From an uncultured bacterium (GTDB lineage: Bacteria > CAIJMQ01): a stretch of DNA of 46,714 bases. The notes beneath the pieces were generated by a model, which worked only from the letters and a program-made list of their open reading frames with translations, was not told the DNA's origin and searched no databases. The number at the start of each line of letters is the position of its first letter. Position 1 is the stretch's first letter. Made by a program: the position numbers and the translations under genes. Positions 1 to 36,360 of this stretch are shown one piece after another. The stretch covers positions 1 through 46,714 of the forward strand of contig CAZNJA010000002.1 in NCBI GenBank assembly GCA_964573245.1. Reading direction: 5' to 3'.

Positions 1-1734
1 CGAATCGAAACTTAATTCATAAGCGCCGATATCAGTATAATTAGGATAGCCTGTTCCAGTATTAGGGACATTTTCAATGTCTGTTCGTGTGGTTCCCAGG
101 ATATCTTTTAAGGGCGCGACGCTTCCATAATATCCGCCATTAGCGGCATCAAGGCAGGGACTTTCTATACTAAGTTTTAAGCCGTCGTCTATAGTATAAA
201 ATAAGCCGTCAGCGCCTGCGGGATTAGTTGGATTTAAAAACAGCGGATTTTCGTCAATGTTACCGCCTTCATCTATGCCATAGTTAGAATCCCAACTTAC
301 GCTGCCGCCCGAGCTGTCTATGTCACTGTACCAGAAACGCGGAGACGAACTCACATTAAATATTCCGTCAGTTCCACTACCCCAAAGGATACAATTATTC
401 AATATCGGAGAAGAAGCCCAGCAATTGTATAAGTCGTCACCATACTCTGCGGTATTTCCCCAAAAGACACAGTTGTTTAACGCCACAACACTGACACGAT
501 TGAGTATACCACCGCCATAATAAGCATAATTTCCGACAAAAAGGCAGCTAATCAACACAGGATGATAAGGATAATAAGCTTCATTGATATATATACCTCC
601 GCCATAATCGGCATAGTTTCCGACGAAAATGCAATTAGTCAATTTCGGCGATGAGTTCCCAAATATGTACATACCGCCAAGTTCTCCATAATTATCTCTA
701 ATAATACATTTATTAATTTTGGGGCTGCTATTATTACAAATTATTCCAACTCCATCATTTGCTCCTCTAATTGTAAAGCCGTCCAAAGTATAATCACTAG
801 TACCAGTTACAACATTGAAACTATTGTCACCATAGTTAGTGAAATCCGGACCATCATCACCATTTAAATCTCCGTTTAAGATTGTTGGATTAGTTACTGA
901 ATTGCGGACTTTCCATAGACCACCACCAGAAGGAAACCCGCCATATACTGATACATTCTCTACAAGCTGGAAGGCCATTGTTTTGTCGCCGGTTGTAATG
1001 CCACTACCCTGGTCCGGTTTATAGACCCCAGATGTTACCCGTATCTCATCACCTGCTAAAATTTCGGGATTATTAATAGCATCCTGTAAATATTTAAAAG
1101 CAGAATCCCATGATACACCATCTCCTCCTGTGCCAATACTTGAATCAACATAGTAAATCTTTTTAGGAATAAGCGGATTAGTTCCATTCTCATATTCTTG
1201 AAGATTCGTGAAACCATCATTGTCAGGGTCTTCACTTGCGTCATCGGGATCAAAACGGTCTAATCCGTATTGAATTTCCCACCAGTCGGGCATACCATCA
1301 CAATCAGAATCACCCCAGCAAGGGGGGTCATCGTCCATATCTGTATCTATGTCAGTGTCTGCATCAGTATCTGTGTCGGCATCAGTATCAGTATCAGTGT
1401 CAGTATCGGTATCAGTGTCTGTATCCGTATCTGTATCAGCTGGGGGAGGAGGAGGCGGTGGGTCATCATCACTGTCGCTGTCAGCATCTGAATCCGCATC
1501 GGCGTCACTGTCGCTATCATCGTCACCAGGCGGTGGAGGAGGACATGCTTCTGTTATATCTGTAGAAAAAGAAGTCAAAACTTGTTGGATAATATTTTTA
1601 ATACCGCTGTTATCTTTAACCCTGAAATTAATTAATGACGAGCGAAAACTTAAAAAAGGCAGTAATACAAAGAAAATTAAGAAAACTACAAAAACAATTT
1701 GCAGCCCTTTGGTTATATTTCTATTTGTTACCAT
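1..1734 (-). CDS. Surface/secreted right-handed beta-helix repeat protein, N-terminal 578 codons only (runs off window start). It has a membrane anchor or signal, a poly-Pro plus acidic (DS/DT)n linker, and TSP3-like Ca-binding motifs.
   Basis: Absent from the ORF track because it has no stop in the window. My translation from ATG 1734..1732: MVTNRNITKGLQIVFVVFLIFFVLLPFLSF...PPPPPGDDDSDSDADADSD...PPPPPPADTDTDTDTDTDTD...DSDCDGMPDWWEIQYGLDRFDPDDASEDPDNDGFTNLQEYENGTNP. This is followed by repeated turns such as NKCIIRDNYGELGGMYIF / TNCIFVGNYADYGGGIYI / ISCLFVGNYAYYGGGIL / NNCVFWGNTAEYG / NNCILWGS, typical of the pectate-lyase-fold beta-helix. The frame stays open to position 1. Confidence 0.75.
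   Translation of the reverse strand, partial: MVTNRNITKGLQIVFVVFLIFFVLLPFLSFRSSLINFRVKDNSGIKNIIQQVLTSFSTDITEACPPPPPGDDDSDSDADADSDADSDSDDDPPPPPPPADTDTDTDTDTDTDTDTDTDADTDTDADTDIDTDMDDDPPCWGDSDCDGMPDWWEIQYGLDRFDPDDASEDPDNDGFTNLQEYENGTNPLIPKKIYYVDSSIGTGGDGVSWDSAFKYLQDAINNPEILAGDEIRVTSGVYKPDQGSGITTGDKTMAFQLVENVSVYGGFPSGGGLWKVRNSVTNPTILNGDLNGDDGPDFTNYGDNSFNVVTGTSDYTLDGFTIRGANDGVGIICNNSSPKINKCIIRDNYGELGGMYIFGNSSPKLTNCIFVGNYADYGGGIYINEAYYPYHPVLISCLFVGNYAYYGGGILNRVSVVALNNCVFWGNTAEYGDDLYNCWASSPILNNCILWGSGTDGIFNVSSSPRFWYSDIDSSGGSVSWDSNYGIDEGGNIDENPLFLNPTNPAGADGLFYTIDDGLKLSIESPCLDAANGGYYGSVAPLKDILGTTRTDIENVPNTGTGYPNYTDIGAYELSFDS
1333..1527 (-). repeat. In-frame hexanucleotide (GAYACN / GAYAGY) low-complexity tract encoding (DT)n and (DS/DA)n, separated by a poly-Pro block
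   Basis: The plus strand reads gtatctgtatctatgtcagtgtctgcatcagtatctgtgtcggcatcagtatcagtatcagtgtcagtatcggtatcag... The antisense artefact ORF 1349..1810 (SVSASVSV...) is its mirror image. Confidence 0.9.
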
Positions 1735-17728: not shown

Positions 17729-19270
17729 TTGAAGAACAATATCGTTCCTGTCGTTTTATCGGTGTCCTCTGCCACGCTTTTGACCTTTTCTTTTCATCCT
17801 TTCAACCTTTCATTTTTGGCGTGGATAGCGTTGGTCCCTTTGTTCTGCATTCCCCAAAAAATATCGCCTAAAAAAATATTTATCCTTTATTATTCTGCCG
17901 GGATTATTTTCTGGTTATCTCATATTTGGTGGCTGATTTATGTAACTCCTTTAGGTTATGTTCTTTTGTCTTTTTATCTTGCCCTATTTTTCGGGCTTTT
18001 GGGATTACTTATTAAATTTTCGAGAGAAAAGACAGGTTATCCTCTCTTGTTTCTCGCCCCGCCTATTTGGGTTATGCTCGAGTTTGCAAGAACTTATATG
18101 TTAATAAGCTTTCCCTGGTCTTTGCTGGGTTATTCGCAATGGCACAATACCGCGCTTATACAAATCTCTTCCATAACAGGTGTTTACGGCGTTTCTTTTT
18201 TGATTGTTATGTTCAATGCGGCAGCATCCGATTTGGTTCTGTTAAAAACAAAAAAGCACTTTCGAAATCTTTTATTATCTTTTCTGACAATAATAAATGT
18301 TATCGTATGGGGCTGGCATGCAATTCCTTTAGAGCAAGAAGGGTACGCCTGCCAGAAAATAAAAATTTCTGTGATTCAAGGAAACATTCCGCAGAACATC
18401 AAATGGGACGAAGAATATTCGAAAGAAATTATAAATACTTATGCGGAGCTAAGCATTTACGCAGGGACAGACCATGATGTTTCTTTAATCGTTTGGCCCG
18501 AAACTTCATATCCGGATTATATTAGCGTTGAAAGCGAATTGTTCCAAAAAGTGCGCAATTTGACTTATTATCTAGACACGCATTTGTTGTTTGGCGCGGT
18601 TACAAGCCAAAATAACAGAGATTACAACTCTGCTTTGCTACTATTATCTCCCGAGGCAGAGATAGAGCAAGTTTATAATAAGTTGCGTCTTGTCCAGTTT
18701 GCCGAATATCTTCCCCTTAAAAAACTTTTATTTTTTTTAAGCGACATTTTCCCGCAAATAGGCGATTTTAGCAAAGGCACGGAATACACTATATTCAATA
18801 TCAAAAATCAAATATCAAATATCAAATATAACTTCGCAACATTGATTTGTTTCGAGGATTTGTTTCCGGATTTGGCAAGGGACTTTACCAATAACGGAGC
18901 ACAGTTTTTAGTCAATATCACTAACGACGCGCACTTTAAAGAATCCCCTGCTTTATGGCAACATTTTGCTCATTCAATTTTCAGAGCCGTAGAAAACAGA
19001 AGACCAATAGTAAGAGCGGCAAACAACGGTATAAGCGCGTTTATAAATTCTTACGGAAAACCGATTGAAATATTAACAGACGCCAACGGCAAAGCACGCG
19101 GAGCACGAGGGTACGCAACCGCGCAAATTAGCCCTTCCAACACTAAAACTTTTTATACCCGTTTCGGAGATTTATTCATTTACATCAACTTGCTTTACCT
19201 GTTTGCTTTATCTATTTATCCTATCCGACAACAAAGAAAAAAAGGAAAACAGGGAGTAAAGAAATTATAA
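17729..19270 (+). CDS. lnt: Apolipoprotein N-acyltransferase
   Basis: 513 aa with an N-terminal polytopic domain and a CN-hydrolase domain. Catalytic-triad contexts: IVWPETSYP, YNKLRLVQFAEYLP, TLICFEDLFP. TTG start. Confidence 0.88.
   Translation: MKNNIVPVVLSVSSATLLTFSFHPFNLSFLAWIALVPLFCIPQKISPKKIFILYYSAGIIFWLSHIWWLIYVTPLGYVLLSFYLALFFGLLGLLIKFSREKTGYPLLFLAPPIWVMLEFARTYMLISFPWSLLGYSQWHNTALIQISSITGVYGVSFLIVMFNAAASDLVLLKTKKHFRNLLLSFLTIINVIVWGWHAIPLEQEGYACQKIKISVIQGNIPQNIKWDEEYSKEIINTYAELSIYAGTDHDVSLIVWPETSYPDYISVESELFQKVRNLTYYLDTHLLFGAVTSQNNRDYNSALLLLSPEAEIEQVYNKLRLVQFAEYLPLKKLLFFLSDIFPQIGDFSKGTEYTIFNIKNQISNIKYNFATLICFEDLFPDLARDFTNNGAQFLVNITNDAHFKESPALWQHFAHSIFRAVENRRPIVRAANNGISAFINSYGKPIEILTDANGKARGARGYATAQISPSNTKTFYTRFGDLFIYINLLYLFALSIYPIRQQRKKGKQGVKKL
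18795..18830 (+). repeat. Heptanucleotide tandem array (TCAATA TCAAAAA TCAAATA x3) inside the lnt CDS
   Basis: Direct reading. It encodes FNIKNQISNIKYN just upstream of the catalytic-Cys strand. The 19-mer AATATCAAAAATCAAATAT (18797-18815) is identical to 27836-27854. Confidence 0.85.
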
Positions 19271-20603: not shown

Positions 20604-20652
20604 ACCCCGTGTTTACGCTCCGACGTAACGTCGGAGCTATCTCTAACGGGGT
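20604..20652. repeat. Nested GC-rich palindromic element (outer ACCCCGT/ACGGGGT, inner GCTCCGACGT-A-ACGTCGGAGC)
   Basis: Direct reading. The inner 21-nt palindrome is shared with the copy inside folC (22737-22757). It ends 4 nt before the AGGAGG RBS of the DUF47 gene. Confidence 0.85.
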
Positions 20653-21344: not shown

Positions 21345-21398
21345 AACTCGCAACTACAGAAAACGGTTATCGGTTTTCGGTTATCGGTGTTCGTTAAA
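21345..21398. repeat. Heptanucleotide direct array (AACTCGC AACTACA ... CGGTTAT CGGTTTT CGGTTAT CGGTGTT CGTTAAA)
   Basis: Direct reading. It fills the convergent spacer between the DUF47 gene and the orphan gene and overlaps the orphan gene's stop codon (21394-21396). Confidence 0.8.
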
Positions 21399-22059: not shown

Positions 22060-23469
22060 TTATTCCTGTTTCTTCTTCAATAGTATACTTCTAGCCTCTC
22101 CTACCAAATACAAAGAGCCGCAGACAAGGATAATATCATTACTCCCTTTATTTTTCTTAAGTTTTTTTATGGTTGATGAAAGATTCTTGCTTGTTGTTAT
22201 GTTTGCATTGTAAGTTTCCCCATCTTTCTTCAGTTCCTCCAAAGAAACAGCTCTTTCGGTATTGGGTTTAGCTAAAATTATCTCATTTGCCAGGGGGAAA
22301 ATTTCTCGCATGATTTCCTCTCTGTCTTTATCTTTAAGTATTCCGAAAAGAATAGTAATTTTTTTATCTTTTTTTAATTTCAAGATTTCTTCTCTCAACA
22401 TCCCTGCCGCCTGCGGATTATGCGCTCCGTCGAGAATAAATATGGGGGGTTTTTTTCCAACACCAAAATTTTCCTGCCCGCCAAGATTTGGCAGGCGGGG
22501 GTGTGGGGACAGGCCTATGACCTCCAGTCTTCCTGACCAGGTAGTTTTCTGCAAGCCTTTATATATATGTTCTTTTTTAATTTTGAATTTTTCGGATAAT
22601 ATTTCGGATGCGGCAACAGCCAAACTTGCGTTCGTATGCTGCCATTTGCCTTTTAAATTTATTACAACATTCGGATAAGAACCTTTTATACCCTTAATAT
22701 TTAATGTTTGACCCAAGAAATACTCCCCGCCTGCTTGCTCCGACGTTACGTCGGAGCGGGCAGGTTTGTATTTTTTCACGAAAAAATCTTTACCGTATAT
22801 AAAAATAGGCGATTTTTTTTCTTTTGCAAGTTCGTTCAGAGTACCAAGCGCTTCTCCTTCAGCGCCCGTAACCAGAGGAGTGTTTTTCCTTATGATCCCG
22901 CCCTTTTCTTTTGCGATGGACGAAACGGTTTTTCCCAGATAATTCGTATGCTCAAGCCCAATACTCGTTATTACCGAAAGGATTGGTTCGGATACATTCG
23001 TGGCATCAAGCCGTCCGCCAAGACCCACTTCATAAACAGCGGCGTTTATTTTTTCCTTCCTGAAATATAAAAATGAAAGCGCTGTCAACACTTCGAAAAA
23101 AGTCGGTCGCGAATAAGGCGGGCAATCGAAGATTTTTTTGATTTCTTTTTTCAATTCGTCCGTAAGGCAAGCAAAAGCCATCCGCGGTATATCCGTTTTT
23201 TTATCACCTCGAAGTATACTGATTCTTTCTCTTATTGTTATAAGATGCGGAGAAGTGTATAGGCCGATTTTCAATCCTGTTTCTCGCAAGATATGAGCAA
23301 TAAAAGAAGCAACAGAACCCTTGCCATTTGTGCCGGCTACCAGAATGACAGGATACGAAAGATGCGGACTATCAAAATGTTCAAGGAGTTTTCTGATATT
23401 GGAAAGACCTAATTTAATTCCCTGCCCTTCTAAACCATAAAGCCAGTTGAGGGATTGTTTGTAAGTCAT
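22060..23469 (-). CDS. folC: Bifunctional folylpolyglutamate synthase / dihydrofolate synthase
   Basis: 469 aa. Mur-ligase P-loop VAGTNGKGSV, TSPHL, typical N-terminus LNWLY......GIKLGL.N...LL. It contains two GC-rich hairpin segments in-frame. Confidence 0.9.
   Translation of the reverse strand: MTYKQSLNWLYGLEGQGIKLGLSNIRKLLEHFDSPHLSYPVILVAGTNGKGSVASFIAHILRETGLKIGLYTSPHLITIRERISILRGDKKTDIPRMAFACLTDELKKEIKKIFDCPPYSRPTFFEVLTALSFLYFRKEKINAAVYEVGLGGRLDATNVSEPILSVITSIGLEHTNYLGKTVSSIAKEKGGIIRKNTPLVTGAEGEALGTLNELAKEKKSPIFIYGKDFFVKKYKPARSDVTSEQAGGEYFLGQTLNIKGIKGSYPNVVINLKGKWQHTNASLAVAASEILSEKFKIKKEHIYKGLQKTTWSGRLEVIGLSPHPRLPNLGGQENFGVGKKPPIFILDGAHNPQAAGMLREEILKLKKDKKITILFGILKDKDREEIMREIFPLANEIILAKPNTERAVSLEELKKDGETYNANITTSKNLSSTIKKLKKNKGSNDIILVCGSLYLVGEARSILLKKKQE
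22472..22518. repeat. GC-clamp hairpin segment inside folC (CCTGCCCGCC-AAGATTT-GGCAGGCGGGGG plus GTGTGGGGACAGG)
   Basis: Direct reading. CCCGCC/GGCGGG or CCTGCC/GGCAGG can pair. The flanks match those of the 22725-22765 element in the opposite orientation. It encodes ...LSPHPRLPNLGGQEN... Confidence 0.6.
22725..22765. repeat. 41-nt GC-rich palindromic element inside folC, in-frame
   Basis: CCCCGCCTGCTTGCTCCGACGTTACGTCGGAGCGGGCAGGT, 29/41 G+C. It shares 33/41 identity with 29135-29175. It encodes KPARSDVTSEQAGGE. Confidence 0.85.
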
Positions 23470-23481
23470 ATCTATGAAAAT

Positions 23482-23562
23482 GGATACTCGATGCTTGATA
23501 CTAGATTCTAGTTAATAAATCCTCCTGCTTTTACGAGTATCGAGAATCCAGTATCTAGTATC
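23482..23562. repeat. Inverted pair of heptamer arrays: (NGATNCT)x4, 21-nt loop, (GAGTATC GAGAATC CAGTATC TAGTATC)
   Basis: Left arm GGATACT CGATGCT TGATACT AGATTCT at 23482-23509. Right arm at 23535-23562. The 30-nt arms are 22/30 complementary in register. Confidence 0.85.
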
Positions 23563-23570
23563 ATTGTAAG

Positions 23571-26936: not shown

Positions 26937-27812
26937 TTATAAATACGGAGTTCCGTCCGCATCTACCAATTTTTTAAACACGTCGCGGATTTTATTGGTG
27001 ATATTTCCCACTTTGCCGCTGCCTATAGTCCTGCCATCGACCTTCACAATGGGAATTATTTCCGCCGCGGTGCCGGTAAGAAAACATTCCTGTGCGTTAA
27101 ACAAATTATACCTGGAAATAGTTCCTTCCTTTACTTCGATAGATATTTTTTTTGCAATTTCCATGACAACTCCCCTTGTTATCCCGTCAAGAACACCCAT
27201 ATGCGTGGAGGGGGTTTTTAAAACATCATTCTCGATTATAAAAACATTATCTGCCGTGCATTCGGTTACAAAACCTTCCCGATTTAACATTATCGCCTCT
27301 TTAAAACCGGCATTTTTTGCCTCTATATTCGCCAATACATTATTTAGATAATTCAGGGATTTCACCTGAGGGTCTAAGTTCTGCGAATTGTTTCGTTGGG
27401 TAGGAACCGTAATTATCTCAATACCTCCTCTGCAAAATTTCTCAGGATACAGTTCTATCTTACCTACAATAACAAATATCGTCGCATTTTTACACTTCTC
27501 GGGAGCAAGCCCCAAATCGCCTTCACCTCTTGTTACCACAATTCTTATATAACAGTCCTTTTGACCGTTGATACGCGCTGTTTTTATAGTAGCTTCAATA
27601 AGTTTTTCTTTTGTAAACGGTATATTGAGGCAAATATATTTTGCGGATTTATATAATCTGTCTATATGTTCCCGCAATTTAAATATTCTGCCGTTATACG
27701 TCCTTAATCCTTCAAAAACACCGTCTCCGTAAAGAAGACCGTGGTCATAAACGGAAATTTTTGCTTCTCCTCTTGAGACAAATTCGCCGTTCAAATATAT
27801 TTTCTGGTCCAT
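26937..27812 (-). CDS. ilvE: Branched-chain amino acid aminotransferase (PLP fold type IV)
   Basis: Y.NGEF.....A..SV.DHG.LYGDGVFEG.R.YNG..F.L..H..RL..SA is the class IV signature. ATG 27812 is preceded by AAGGGG; the track's GTG 27818 is less likely. Confidence 0.85.
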   Translation of the reverse strand: MDQKIYLNGEFVSRGEAKISVYDHGLLYGDGVFEGLRTYNGRIFKLREHIDRLYKSAKYICLNIPFTKEKLIEATIKTARINGQKDCYIRIVVTRGEGDLGLAPEKCKNATIFVIVGKIELYPEKFCRGGIEIITVPTQRNNSQNLDPQVKSLNYLNNVLANIEAKNAGFKEAIMLNREGFVTECTADNVFIIENDVLKTPSTHMGVLDGITRGVVMEIAKKISIEVKEGTISRYNLFNAQECFLTGTAAEIIPIVKVDGRTIGSGKVGNITNKIRDVFKKLVDADGTPYL

Positions 27813-27833
27813 CTTCACCCCTTATTTTAAAAT

Positions 27834-28007
27834 TAAATATCAAAAATCAAATATTAAAATTTAAATAGGAAAACCCGCGCTGACAAAGTTCTGTTATTAG
27901 CTTTTTCTGGTATCGAGCATTTAGTATCAAGAATCCAGTTTCTCATTTTGAACTTTAATTTGTCATTTTGCATTTTTACTTTTTAATTTTTACTTTTGCC
28001 TTTAGAT
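27834..28007. repeat. Composite heptamer-periodic spacer: (YAAAWAT)x5, a 41-nt non-periodic core, then 14 consecutive heptamers (GTATCGA GCATTTA GTATCAA GAATCCA GTTTCTC ATTTTGA ... TTTTTAC TTTTGCC TTTAGAT)
   Basis: Direct reading. It occupies nearly all of the 196-202 bp rpiB-ilvE spacer. It shares the words GTATCGAG, TAGTATCAAG and GAATCCAG with the array at 23482-23562. Confidence 0.85.
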
Positions 28008-28014
28008 TATACCT

Positions 28015-28473
28015 CTAACAGCATTTATTTTCTATTTCACTTATTAAATCAACCCTTCTTTGATGCCTTCCGCCGTCGAATGGGGTCGAAAGCCACATAT
28101 CAACAATCTGAATTGCCAGCTCAAGTGAAATGGTTCTCTGTCCAATTGCAAGAACATTCGCGTTATTGTGACCTCTCGCCCATTTTGCCGTGTCATAACT
28201 CCAGCATAAGGAGCAACGAATGCCTTTGATTTTGTTAGCAACAATAGCTTCTCCGTTGCCGGAACCACCGAATACAATGCCGTAATCCGCCTTCCCCTTT
28301 GCAACCGCTTCCGCCGTCGGTCTGACAAAATTCGGATAATCGCACGGCTGGTCCGAATCAGTACCGAAATCTAGCACTTCAATACCCTTTTCAATTAGAT
28401 ATTTCTTAATCGCCTCCTTGTATTTGAATCCGGCATGGTCGCTTCCCAAAGCAACGGAAATATTAGTGTCCAT
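28015..28473 (-). CDS. rpiB: Ribose-5-phosphate isomerase B
   Basis: 152 aa. ...GSDHAGF..K..I..YL...G.EV.D.G...... followed by GI...G.GNGE.I.ANK..GIR. Confidence 0.9.
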   Translation of the reverse strand: MDTNISVALGSDHAGFKYKEAIKKYLIEKGIEVLDFGTDSDQPCDYPNFVRPTAEAVAKGKADYGIVFGGSGNGEAIVANKIKGIRCSLCWSYDTAKWARGHNNANVLAIGQRTISLELAIQIVDMWLSTPFDGGRHQRRVDLISEIENKCC

Positions 28474-29117: not shown

Positions 29118-29134
29118 ATTATCTTTTTAAAAAT

Positions 29135-29173
29135 CCCCGCCTGCTTGTCCCAACGTAACGTCGGGATGGGCAG
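29135..29173. repeat. Intergenic copy of the GC-rich palindromic element (prfB-tsaC spacer)
   Basis: CCCCGCCTGCTTGTCCCAACGTAACGTCGGGATGGGCAG. It has the same 13-nt left flank as the folC copy. On the minus strand it is followed by GGGGATTTTTAAAAAG. Confidence 0.85.
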
Positions 29174-29184
29174 ATGTGTAATCA

Positions 29185-31475: not shown

Positions 31476-31476
31476 A

Positions 31477-31599
31477 TTCCAAATCACAGGCACCAAACCA
31501 CAAATAAATTCCAATATTCAAAAGTATCCGTTTGGAATTTTGGTTATTGATTATTGGATATTATTTGATGATTAGTACTTGGAATTTATGATTTGGAAG
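31477..31599. repeat. Inverted heptamer-periodic arms in the dehydrogenase-phoH spacer
   Basis: TTCCAAATCA (31477-31486) pairs with TGATTTGGAA (31589-31598). AAATTCCAA (31506-31514) pairs with TTGGAATTT (31579-31587, also 31532-31540). The right arm is in 7-nt register: TTGGTTA TTGATTA TTGGATA (4-nt slip) TTGATGA TTAGTAC TTGGAAT TTATGAT TTGGAAG. Confidence 0.75.
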
Positions 31600-31607
31600 C
31601 TATACAG

Positions 31608-31636
31608 TTGACTTATCTTCGTCTCTTTTCTAATAT
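31608..31636 (+). promoter_or_regulatory. Candidate sigma70-type promoter immediately upstream of phoH (would give a near-leaderless mRNA)
   Basis: TTGACT (31608-31613), 17 nt spacer, TAATAT (31631-31636). Only 11 nt separate the -10 element from ATG 31648, and there is no SD sequence. Confidence 0.35.
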
Positions 31637-31647
31637 CTTATTGAACG

Positions 31648-36287: not shown

Positions 36288-36290
36288 CTT

Positions 36291-36360
36291 TAGATAATAG
36301 ACACTAGACCACAGACTAAAAGAAAGTCCAATATCTAATGTCTATGGTCTAATAACTATG
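36291..36360. repeat. Inverted heptamer arrays (TAGATAA TAGACAC TAGACCA CAGACTA ... ATCTAAT GTCTATG GTCTAAT AACTATG) in the lptA-lptB spacer
   Basis: Direct reading. TAGACCACAGAC (36305-36316) is complementary to GTCTATGGTCTA (36340-36351) with one mismatch. The right arm runs into the lptB start codon. Confidence 0.8.

Follow-up and report, generated by a model that had tools for sequence, protein, structure and literature searches.

Heptanucleotide tandem repeats in frame within lnt of an uncultured Omnitrophota-like bacterium and at recurrent loop positions in its relatives

In most prokaryotic genomes, the simple sequence repeats (SSRs) with units of 5 to 11 nucleotides (nt) are most often heptanucleotides, according to the survey of Mrazek, Guo and Shah (2007) as quoted in PMC4679880. 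In the account quoted there, polymerase slippage was proposed as their origin, the enzyme interacting with a 7-nt length of DNA, and a location in coding regions was given as most likely for units whose length is divisible by three (Mrazek et al. 2007, via PMC4679880). Here, a heptanucleotide array is described within a gene predicted to encode apolipoprotein N-acyltransferase (lnt) on contig CAZNJA010000002.1 (assembly GCA_964573245.1) of an uncultured bacterium, of which the whole 46,714-nt stretch analyzed is referred to as the window. As with the long SSRs of the survey, the window carries 7-nt units arranged head to tail, an excess of arrays at period 7, and a largely intergenic distribution (five of six arrays, that in lnt being the sole coding one). 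Unlike the surveyed repeats, the lnt arrays have a non-triplet unit yet lie in frame inside a conserved enzyme, and they recur at fixed loops across the phylum, with three-unit steps in length and concerted turnover of the units.

Two further systems invite comparison. Direct repeats of the heptamer TAACTGA are known from marine Beggiatoaceae, cyanobacteria and Bacteroidetes (PMC4679880). Like the arrays of the window, they form short sets of 2 to 6 copies that lie mainly between genes, in many cases shortly before a start codon, and now and then the orientation that lacks stops is translated into a repeat of 7 residues. TAACTGA families have one favored unit per genome, whereas here the units vary between arrays and species and form no single sequence family. 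The short tandemly repeated repetitive (STRR) heptamers of cyanobacteria are similar to the TAACTGA-type repeats. In Haemophilus influenzae, phase-variable heptanucleotide SSRs include those of the hmw1A and hmw2A promoters, an intragenic (AATTTTG)14 and (AACAACC)8-13 (PMC2651432). These tracts and the lnt array have in common the 7-nt unit, the possibility of an intragenic location and the shift in frame that follows a change of one unit. Most of the H. influenzae tracts are perfect runs of 8 to 38 units that vary from strain to strain and are associated with surface proteins. The lnt tract belongs to a housekeeping gene, has 3 perfect units and shows no variation among the available assemblies. 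Its repeat class is a known one; what is new is the recurrence of such arrays at loop hot spots.

The open reading frame (ORF) is predicted to encode Lnt, with an LNT_N domain (Pfam E value, 1.4e-35) followed by a carbon-nitrogen hydrolase domain (CN_hydrolase; E value, 4.9e-24) and a Glu-Lys-Cys triad. Lnt chains in the PDB matched residues 77 to 505 (E value, 6e-44), and the triad residues E258, K318 and C374 were invariant in 34 aligned sequences. They align with the WPE, YNK and AIC motifs of Escherichia coli Lnt, where we take the triad to be E267, K335 and C387. The nearest proteins carry the names Candidatus Ratteibacteria or Omnitrophota, and the 14 sequencing runs that hold the locus in assembled contigs are salt-marsh metagenomes. 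Public records differ in the start that is called: the NCBI record and one from the Joint Genome Institute (JGI) begin 34 codons later and give 479 amino acids (aa), and the 513-aa form from the TTG at 17729 is that of another JGI record and of Logan. In the 513-aa form, residues 14 to 165 match LNT_N profile positions 1 to 159.

Read directly from the window, positions 18795 to 18830 are TCAATA TCAAAAA TCAAATA TCAAATA TCAAATA TA. The array thus consists of three perfect TCAAATA units and two imperfect ones and can also be phased as AATATCA AAAATCA AATATCA AATATCA AATAT; the lag-7 signal around it reaches in full from 18789 to 18836. Its units are read in all three phases, and the sense strand is free of stops in every frame. 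The first-pass annotation, made from the sequence alone, had placed a heptamer array inside lnt in the loop that precedes the catalytic-Cys strand, and the sequence and Tandem Repeats Finder (TRF) agree with that placement (Table 1).

To place the loop among its orthologues, 172 lnt loci, some of them from a profile scan of species-representative genomes, were compared as DNA. An exact-protein search of species-representative genomes returned a single match, 25% identical, and no close relative; metagenome relatives were at most 45% identical among the matches listed. The loop, delimited by YTIF and F..LICFED, is 12 aa in many of 34 aligned relatives. Across the 172 loci, lengths of 5 aa (n = 10), 6 aa (n = 76, mostly outgroups), 12 aa (n = 22), 19 aa (n = 3) and 26 aa (n = 1) were counted. 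Outgroup loops, from records labeled Nitrospirota, Geobacter and similar, are of 6 aa, and some Omnitrophota have loops of 5 aa. The series 5, 12, 19 and 26 aa rises in steps of 7 aa, or three heptamers. Within the window's own subclade, L210 (AATATTA AAAATAAT, encoding NIKNN) and L211 (AAAATCA AAAACAGG, encoding KIKNR) have two units and loops of 5 aa, and the window and L003 to L005 have five units and loops of 12 aa, so that copy number differs between relatives by whole units. Because a 7-nt unit does not fill whole codons, the lnt frame is kept only by three-unit changes (21 nt, 7 aa). The proposal that the frame survives only when units change by threes is borne out by the clustering of loops at 5, 12, 19 and 26 aa and by the two-unit and five-unit states. 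The related proposal that residues have been inserted at this site held in part: about 7 aa are present beyond the minimal loop of 5 to 6 aa seen in L210, L211 and the outgroups, but most clade members share the 12 aa. An insertion relative to all orthologues was accordingly ruled out; it is visible only against the 5- to 6-aa forms, because many relatives have loops of 12 aa, several of them similar in sequence.

Heptamer-periodic DNA was identified in this loop in at least 19 independent Omnitrophota lnt genes. Lag-7 identity was ≥0.70 in 21 of the 78 loops of at least 10 aa, against 0.9 loops expected from other parts of the same lnt genes, and for the remaining lags from 4 to 12 only 0 to 3 loops reached this cutoff. 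The units differ among species and include AATATCA, AAAATTA, AAAATCM, ACCGATA, ATCGGCY, AGCCTTC, CACCCTT, AAGCCGC, CTACTAC and ACGAACG. The encoded peptides are unrelated: some species have K/N/I-rich sequences and others P/S/A-rich ones. Together with the lag-7 specificity, this places the signal in the DNA and not in the protein. Loops of the same length and similar residues in orthologues free of heptamer repeats would have refuted the first-pass annotation; for the similar loops KIKNQKLKIKNR and EIQNQKSKIKNK, however, the coding DNA itself consists of heptamer repeats.

These data bear on convergence at the protein level only, in which an alternating K/N/I hairpin would be selected in an AT-rich genome and its A-rich codons would seem periodic. 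The resemblance of KIKNQKLKIKNR and EIQNQKSKIKNK to the window loop, the low G+C content of the loop region in the window lnt (0.14) and the regular hairpin of the structural model are consistent with it. Against it, the period is 7 nt and not 21 or 3 nt, and GC-rich species carry GC-rich heptamers and P/S/A-rich peptides in the same loop. Substitutions between the window and L003 track the phase of the heptamer over different amino acid contexts. In addition, the second unit of L003 to L005 departs from the consensus at the very site where a perfect AAAATTA would introduce a TAA stop in frame, and carries C or G there. Largely refuted already by the diversity of units and the lag-7 specificity, convergence of this kind is very unlikely.

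The window and L003 differ at nine sites, eight of which are at unit positions 3 and 6, and they have the same unit 2. By our own count the chance of such a placement is ∼1e-5, or ∼3e-4 when the post hoc choice of two positions is allowed for, and the units have therefore been homogenized or re-expanded after the divergence of the two species. The unit of L044 and that of L057 are copies of conserved upstream codons, which argues for a local origin. In a neighbor-joining tree, heptamer loops are interspersed with 5-aa loops across several subclades. Repeats of other periods were seen in two loops, an 8-nt array (ATCCACCT, 3.9 copies) in the 14-aa loop (6 + 8 aa) of L060 and a 9-nt array (TCGGAGTCA, 2.6 copies) in the 19-aa loop of L008.

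Coding heptamer arrays are not confined to this loop. In 89 Omnitrophota-like lnt genes, 47 arrays were found at four loop positions, with at least one in 28 of the genes, compared with 4 arrays in 81 outgroup lnt genes; arrays of periods 5, 8, 10 and 11 numbered 0, 4, 1 and 0, respectively. In the AlphaFold model, each of the four sites corresponds to a loop or linker. TRF identified four near-perfect arrays within or just upstream of lnt in L213 (positions 1 to 1747) and five in L218 (positions 1 to 2079), each of 4.3 to 5.4 copies with 92 to 100% matches and with a different unit each time; one array per locus lies just 5′ of the start codon.

Inserts of another kind were also seen in frame in lnt loops. 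GC-rich double hairpins resembling repetitive extragenic palindromic (REP) sequences or miniature inverted-repeat transposable elements occur in the hairpin loop of L069 and, in L004 and L008, at approximately residue 176 of the window Lnt. In L069 the insert of ∼30 nt interrupts a CAAATTC heptamer array (RNAfold, −19.5 kcal/mol). Similar ...FG(Q/R)GGQ peptides are present in P0002, P0008 and P0014, with weaker variants in P0011 and P0012, and a KGGQ peptide is found in the hairpin loop of P0008 and P0010.

The AlphaFold model of the window Lnt (mean predicted local distance difference test score, 86.9; predicted template modeling score, 0.88) comprises helices over residues 6 to 198 and a C-terminal helix at 482 to 512. 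It shares its two-domain architecture and catalytic residues with the Lnt of E. coli and Pseudomonas aeruginosa (5vrg, 5n6h, 5xhq and 6nwr), and a hairpin precedes the catalytic-Cys strand in the solved structures and in the window Lnt alike. In the model this hairpin is formed by a strand at 356 to 360, a turn at 361 to 364 (QISN) and a strand at 365 to 373, with Cys374 opening the next helix. The E. coli segment is 5 residues shorter, and the hairpin of the window Lnt is predicted to be lengthened by the repeat-encoded residues 357 to 368, which would form a surface beta-hairpin extension. Judged from the secondary-structure string of the model, its tip is ∼10 residues from Cys374, at the opposite end of the strand. 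Modeling of the loop relative to the active site, as the first-pass annotation suggested, places the hairpin directly before the catalytic-Cys strand and its tip at the far end of that strand. From the nitrilase fold of Lnt, the tip presumably faces away from the membrane-side active site.

Taken with the loop comparisons, the lnt array is probably a heptanucleotide SSR generated by slippage within coding sequence and filtered by reading frame and by the permissiveness of the loop. The array itself, its position, the three-unit steps in length and the recurrence are observed directly; slippage as the cause, and neutrality, are inferred. Slippage during replication or repair would multiply a local 7-nt seed, which in this clade may have been AAAATYA AAAAT, already coding for K/N-I-K-N. 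Selection would then pass the two-unit and five-unit states, and states of 8 or 11 units rarely. The 21 extra bases add seven residues that, in the model, lengthen the two-stranded beta-hairpin, an insertion that is tolerated and probably near-neutral. In Omnitrophota the same process has recurred at the site of loop 357 to 368 and at three other Lnt loops, with lineage-specific units turning over together.

Several points weigh against this explanation. A slippage event was never seen directly, and length variants were judged from assembled contigs, in which rare variants would be missed. It is hard to see mechanistically how an array of one or two units could reach four or five in one in-frame step, and gain of units one at a time would go through frameshifted alleles. 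At two other Lnt hot spots, arrays are present without a clear net change in length, and simple insertion fails there. A neutral genome-wide process alone also leaves the frequent hits at this loop unexplained and must be joined by permissiveness of the loop or by selection for a longer hairpin. Two other origins were set aside. An assembly artifact was ruled out, as independent NCBI, JGI and Logan assemblies are identical and the arrays lie in frame at structural loops, and a transposon footprint or target-site duplication was rejected by reasoning, as it would leave two copies and not four or five.

Taken alone, the lnt array is an ordinary, tolerated seven-residue hairpin extension of a housekeeping enzyme. 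The comparative pattern is of wider interest: non-triplet repeats persist in frame within conserved and probably essential genes, where only three-unit changes are seen, and the same structural loops are hit across the phylum with units turning over together. Such a pattern offers a countable signature of 7-nt slippage in uncultured bacteria and a mechanism for the evolution of loop length. For annotation, K/N/I-rich or P/S-rich 7-residue pseudorepeats in proteins from metagenome-assembled genomes may be DNA-level repeats and not functional motifs. A bolder extension, which we regard as plausible but somewhat short of an even chance, is that triple-heptamer expansion and contraction systematically remodels every permissive loop in Omnitrophota, and possibly in Patescibacteria, Saccharibacteria and others, with units replaced faster than species diverge. 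If so, non-triplet SSRs would be a main driver of change in loop length in these genomes, and an unusual property of the replication or repair machinery would be indicated.

An alternative is that the array serves as a contingency locus, in which slippage by one unit in either direction would toggle lnt and let subpopulations vary the triacylation of lipoproteins, and second-order selection for mutability would preserve the repetitiveness. In its favor, the tract lies within an ORF and has a unit length not divisible by 3; perfect arrays of 4 to 5 copies exist in relatives, and units are homogenized inside arrays and different between species, implying repeated slippage. Intragenic heptanucleotide tracts that frameshift genes are, moreover, known from H. 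influenzae (PMC2651432). However, the three perfect units of the window compare with mostly 8 to 38 in the H. influenzae tracts for which phase variation has been proposed or shown, one upstream tract having 1 to 7 (PMC2651432), and no long perfect tract was present in lnt, where the three perfect units are accompanied by two imperfect ones. Lnt is a housekeeping enzyme and not a surface antigen, and like arrays occur in many unrelated housekeeping proteins. No indels were found in the consensus contigs that span the array in four salt-marsh samples (X1, X2, X4 and X5), and the four database copies, at least three of them from independent assemblies, showed no length differences and are identical save for the called start. 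Frameshifts in the loop numbered 0 among ∼170 lnt loci. Phase variation is unlikely, given the short, imperfect tract and the lack of length variants in the contigs of the four samples. The first-pass annotation had further suggested slippage that would inactivate lnt; no evidence of ongoing slippage or inactivated alleles was found in these contigs, database copies and loci. The assembly of a further run, X3, breaks at the lnt array, which illustrates that assemblies can break at heptamer arrays.

The excess of period 7 in the window was assessed against Markov simulations. Six period-7 arrays were present in the real window and none in 40 simulated windows, and an array as strong as that in lnt occurred in none of 30 to 40 simulated windows, so that the lnt array, with 4.7 head-to-tail copies, is far beyond chance. 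Of periods 4 to 24, only 7 and its harmonic 14 (two arrays) were in excess, and the rest were at or near background (two arrays at period 6). At least four different units occur among the six arrays of this 46.7 kb of genome, namely the AATATCA type (twice), CGGTTAT, NAGTATC and TTTTTAC. A single favored unit at many loci, as in dispersed families of the TAACTGA or STRR type, was not found within the window.

The 19-mer AATATCAAAAATCAAATAT, which takes in the variant unit AAAATCA, occurs at 18797 to 18815 and again at 27836 to 27854, an exact recurrence that had been noted from the sequence and was confirmed. Its second occurrence is within a 196-nt spacer that separates rpiB (28015 to 28473, minus strand) from a class IV aminotransferase gene resembling ilvE (26937 to 27818, minus strand). 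The array that holds it is directly upstream of the minus-strand start of the ilvE-like gene and overlaps a weak promoter-like −10 site. The two arrays could be copies of one dispersed element, or gene conversion could have acted between them. Exact identity over 19 nt that includes a variant unit accords with this, as do an identical array of 30 to 33 nt with unrelated flanks on other contigs of the same metagenomes and the several arrays of the (ATCAAAW) unit in some genomes. Yet the identity ends at 19 nt, with mismatches at both ends, and the remaining four arrays of the window use different units. The identical 19-mer was found in 6 of 120 unrelated (ATCAAAW)n arrays of other genomes, and when one genome was scanned for each species, more than 120 genomes of very diverse phyla had (ATCAAAW)4 arrays. 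In simulations of the window at Markov order 1, 3 and 5, exact repeats of ≥19 nt arose in 1, 4 and 4 of 40 windows, respectively (2.5 to 10%), so that the identity exceeds chance only weakly. A dispersed element or gene conversion is accordingly quite unlikely, and the shared 19-mer, once read as a specific tie to the array upstream of ilvE, is instead of a common low-complexity repeat type. On the slippage explanation, the match would reflect two arrays of one common A/T-rich unit type that have no functional link.

A further possibility is an embedded regulatory element in lnt, such as an internal promoter, protein-binding iterons or an RNA site for proteins that bind heptamers, cold-shock proteins among them. 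A/T-rich heptamer arrays do precede start codons at other places in the window, as at 27824 to 27866, and binding of heptamer repeats by CspB has been discussed (PMC4679880). Promoter-like sites between 18600 and 19400 numbered 3 against 2.7 expected, and Rfam and tRNA scans of the window gave no match. The unit sequence differs between orthologues, and sequence-specific binding is unlikely because it is not conserved. A regulatory role for the lnt array is thus highly improbable.

In other genomes the 8-kb surroundings of the arrays held 265 arrays at period 7, against 30, 15 and 13 at periods 8, 6 and 9. Among the 120 (ATCAAAW)n arrays, 59 lie in frame within long ORFs for unrelated proteins across phyla; these coding arrays have up to 5.7 units, with one exception, and non-coding arrays have up to 12. 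Nearly identical in-frame (AAAATCA)4-5 arrays were seen in unrelated proteins among L090 to L209 (for example, L091, L095, L103, L138 and L168), yielding KSKIKNQ or SNIKYQI peptides. Their hosts include Patescibacteria, Saccharibacteria, Planctomycetota, Acidobacteriota, Gammaproteobacteria and others, and the 8-kb stretches around them hold 145 further period-7 arrays with other units. Coordinates in the window, the array sites of Lnt and the loop DNA of individual loci are collected in Table 1.

Table 1. Features of the window, array sites in Lnt and heptamer DNA of the Lnt loop
Feature	Position	Strand	Sequence or size	Basis or context
lnt, apolipoprotein N-acyltransferase (predicted)	17729-19270	+	513 aa, TTG start	Pfam, PDB matches
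Heptanucleotide tandem array	18797-18829	+	Period 7, 4.7 copies, 92% matches, score 59	TRF
Twelve codons, Lnt residues 357-368	18797-18832	+	NIKNQISNIKYN	Codon layout; ends directly 5′ of FATLICFED
TGT codon, catalytic Cys374 in LICFED	18848-18850	+		Sequence, alignment
Intergenic heptamer array	21359-21395	+	CGGTTAT type	Between convergent genes
Inverted heptamer-array pair	23483-23563	+	GATACTN (23483-23511), NAGTATC (23533-23563)	One spacer
Intergenic period-7/14 array	27824-27866	+	Holds the 19-mer	Repeat scan; rpiB-ilvE spacer
Second intergenic heptamer array of the rpiB-ilvE spacer	27958-28005	+	TTTTTAC type	Just past rpiB stop codon
Array site in Lnt	Reference residues ∼100-105		13 arrays	
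Array site in Lnt	Reference residues ∼170-180		9 arrays	
Array site in Lnt	Reference residues ∼200-206		6 arrays	
Array site in Lnt	Reference residues ∼350-368		19 arrays	
Loop DNA, window			AATATCA AAAATCA AATATCA AATATCA AATATAAC; 12 aa	
Loop DNA, L003			AAAATTA AAAATCA AAAATTA AAAATTA AAAATAGG; 12 aa	
Loop DNA, L006			GAAATCC AAAATCA AAAATCC AAAATCA AAAATAAA; 12 aa	
Loop DNA, L009			ACCGATA x3; 11 aa	
Loop DNA, L013			ATCGGCY x4; 12 aa	
Loop DNA, L044 / L284			AGCCTTC; 12 aa	
Loop DNA, L057			CACCCTT; 12 aa	
Loop DNA, L212			AAAAYTC x5; 12 aa	
Loop DNA, L217			AAGCCGC x4; 14 aa	
Loop DNA, L218			CTRCTAC; 12 aa	
Loop DNA, L242			ACGAACG x6; 19 aa	
Loop DNA, L257			Two arrays; 26 aa	

Other repeats were noted in the window. 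Inverted heptamer-periodic pairs that could fold into long imperfect hairpins lie in spacers at 23483 to 23563 (GATACTN/NAGTATC), 31476 to 31647 (CCAA-type/TTGG-type) and 36288 to 36357 (TAGACNN/NNGTCTA). Their NAG-N4 spacing is reminiscent of the sites bound by HutP and other ring-shaped RNA-binding proteins. A repeat of period 6/12/24 (TCAGTA / TATCAGTATCTG) with ∼8 to 15 copies and 73 to 78% matches spans 1338 to 1439, partly upstream of and partly inside a plus-strand ORF (1349 to 1810). The GC-rich palindrome GCTCCGACGTAACGTCGGAGC gives a 22-nt match at 20616 to 20637 and 22737 to 22758; one copy, with an outer CCCCGT...ACGGGG stem, is in the spacer upstream of a PhoU_div gene, and the other is inside a Mur-ligase ORF. 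A related palindrome, CCCAACGTAACGTCGGG, is located at approximately 29149 to 29165 in the spacer 29118 to 29184. Rfam gave no match to these palindromes, which could represent a REP-like or terminator hairpin family.

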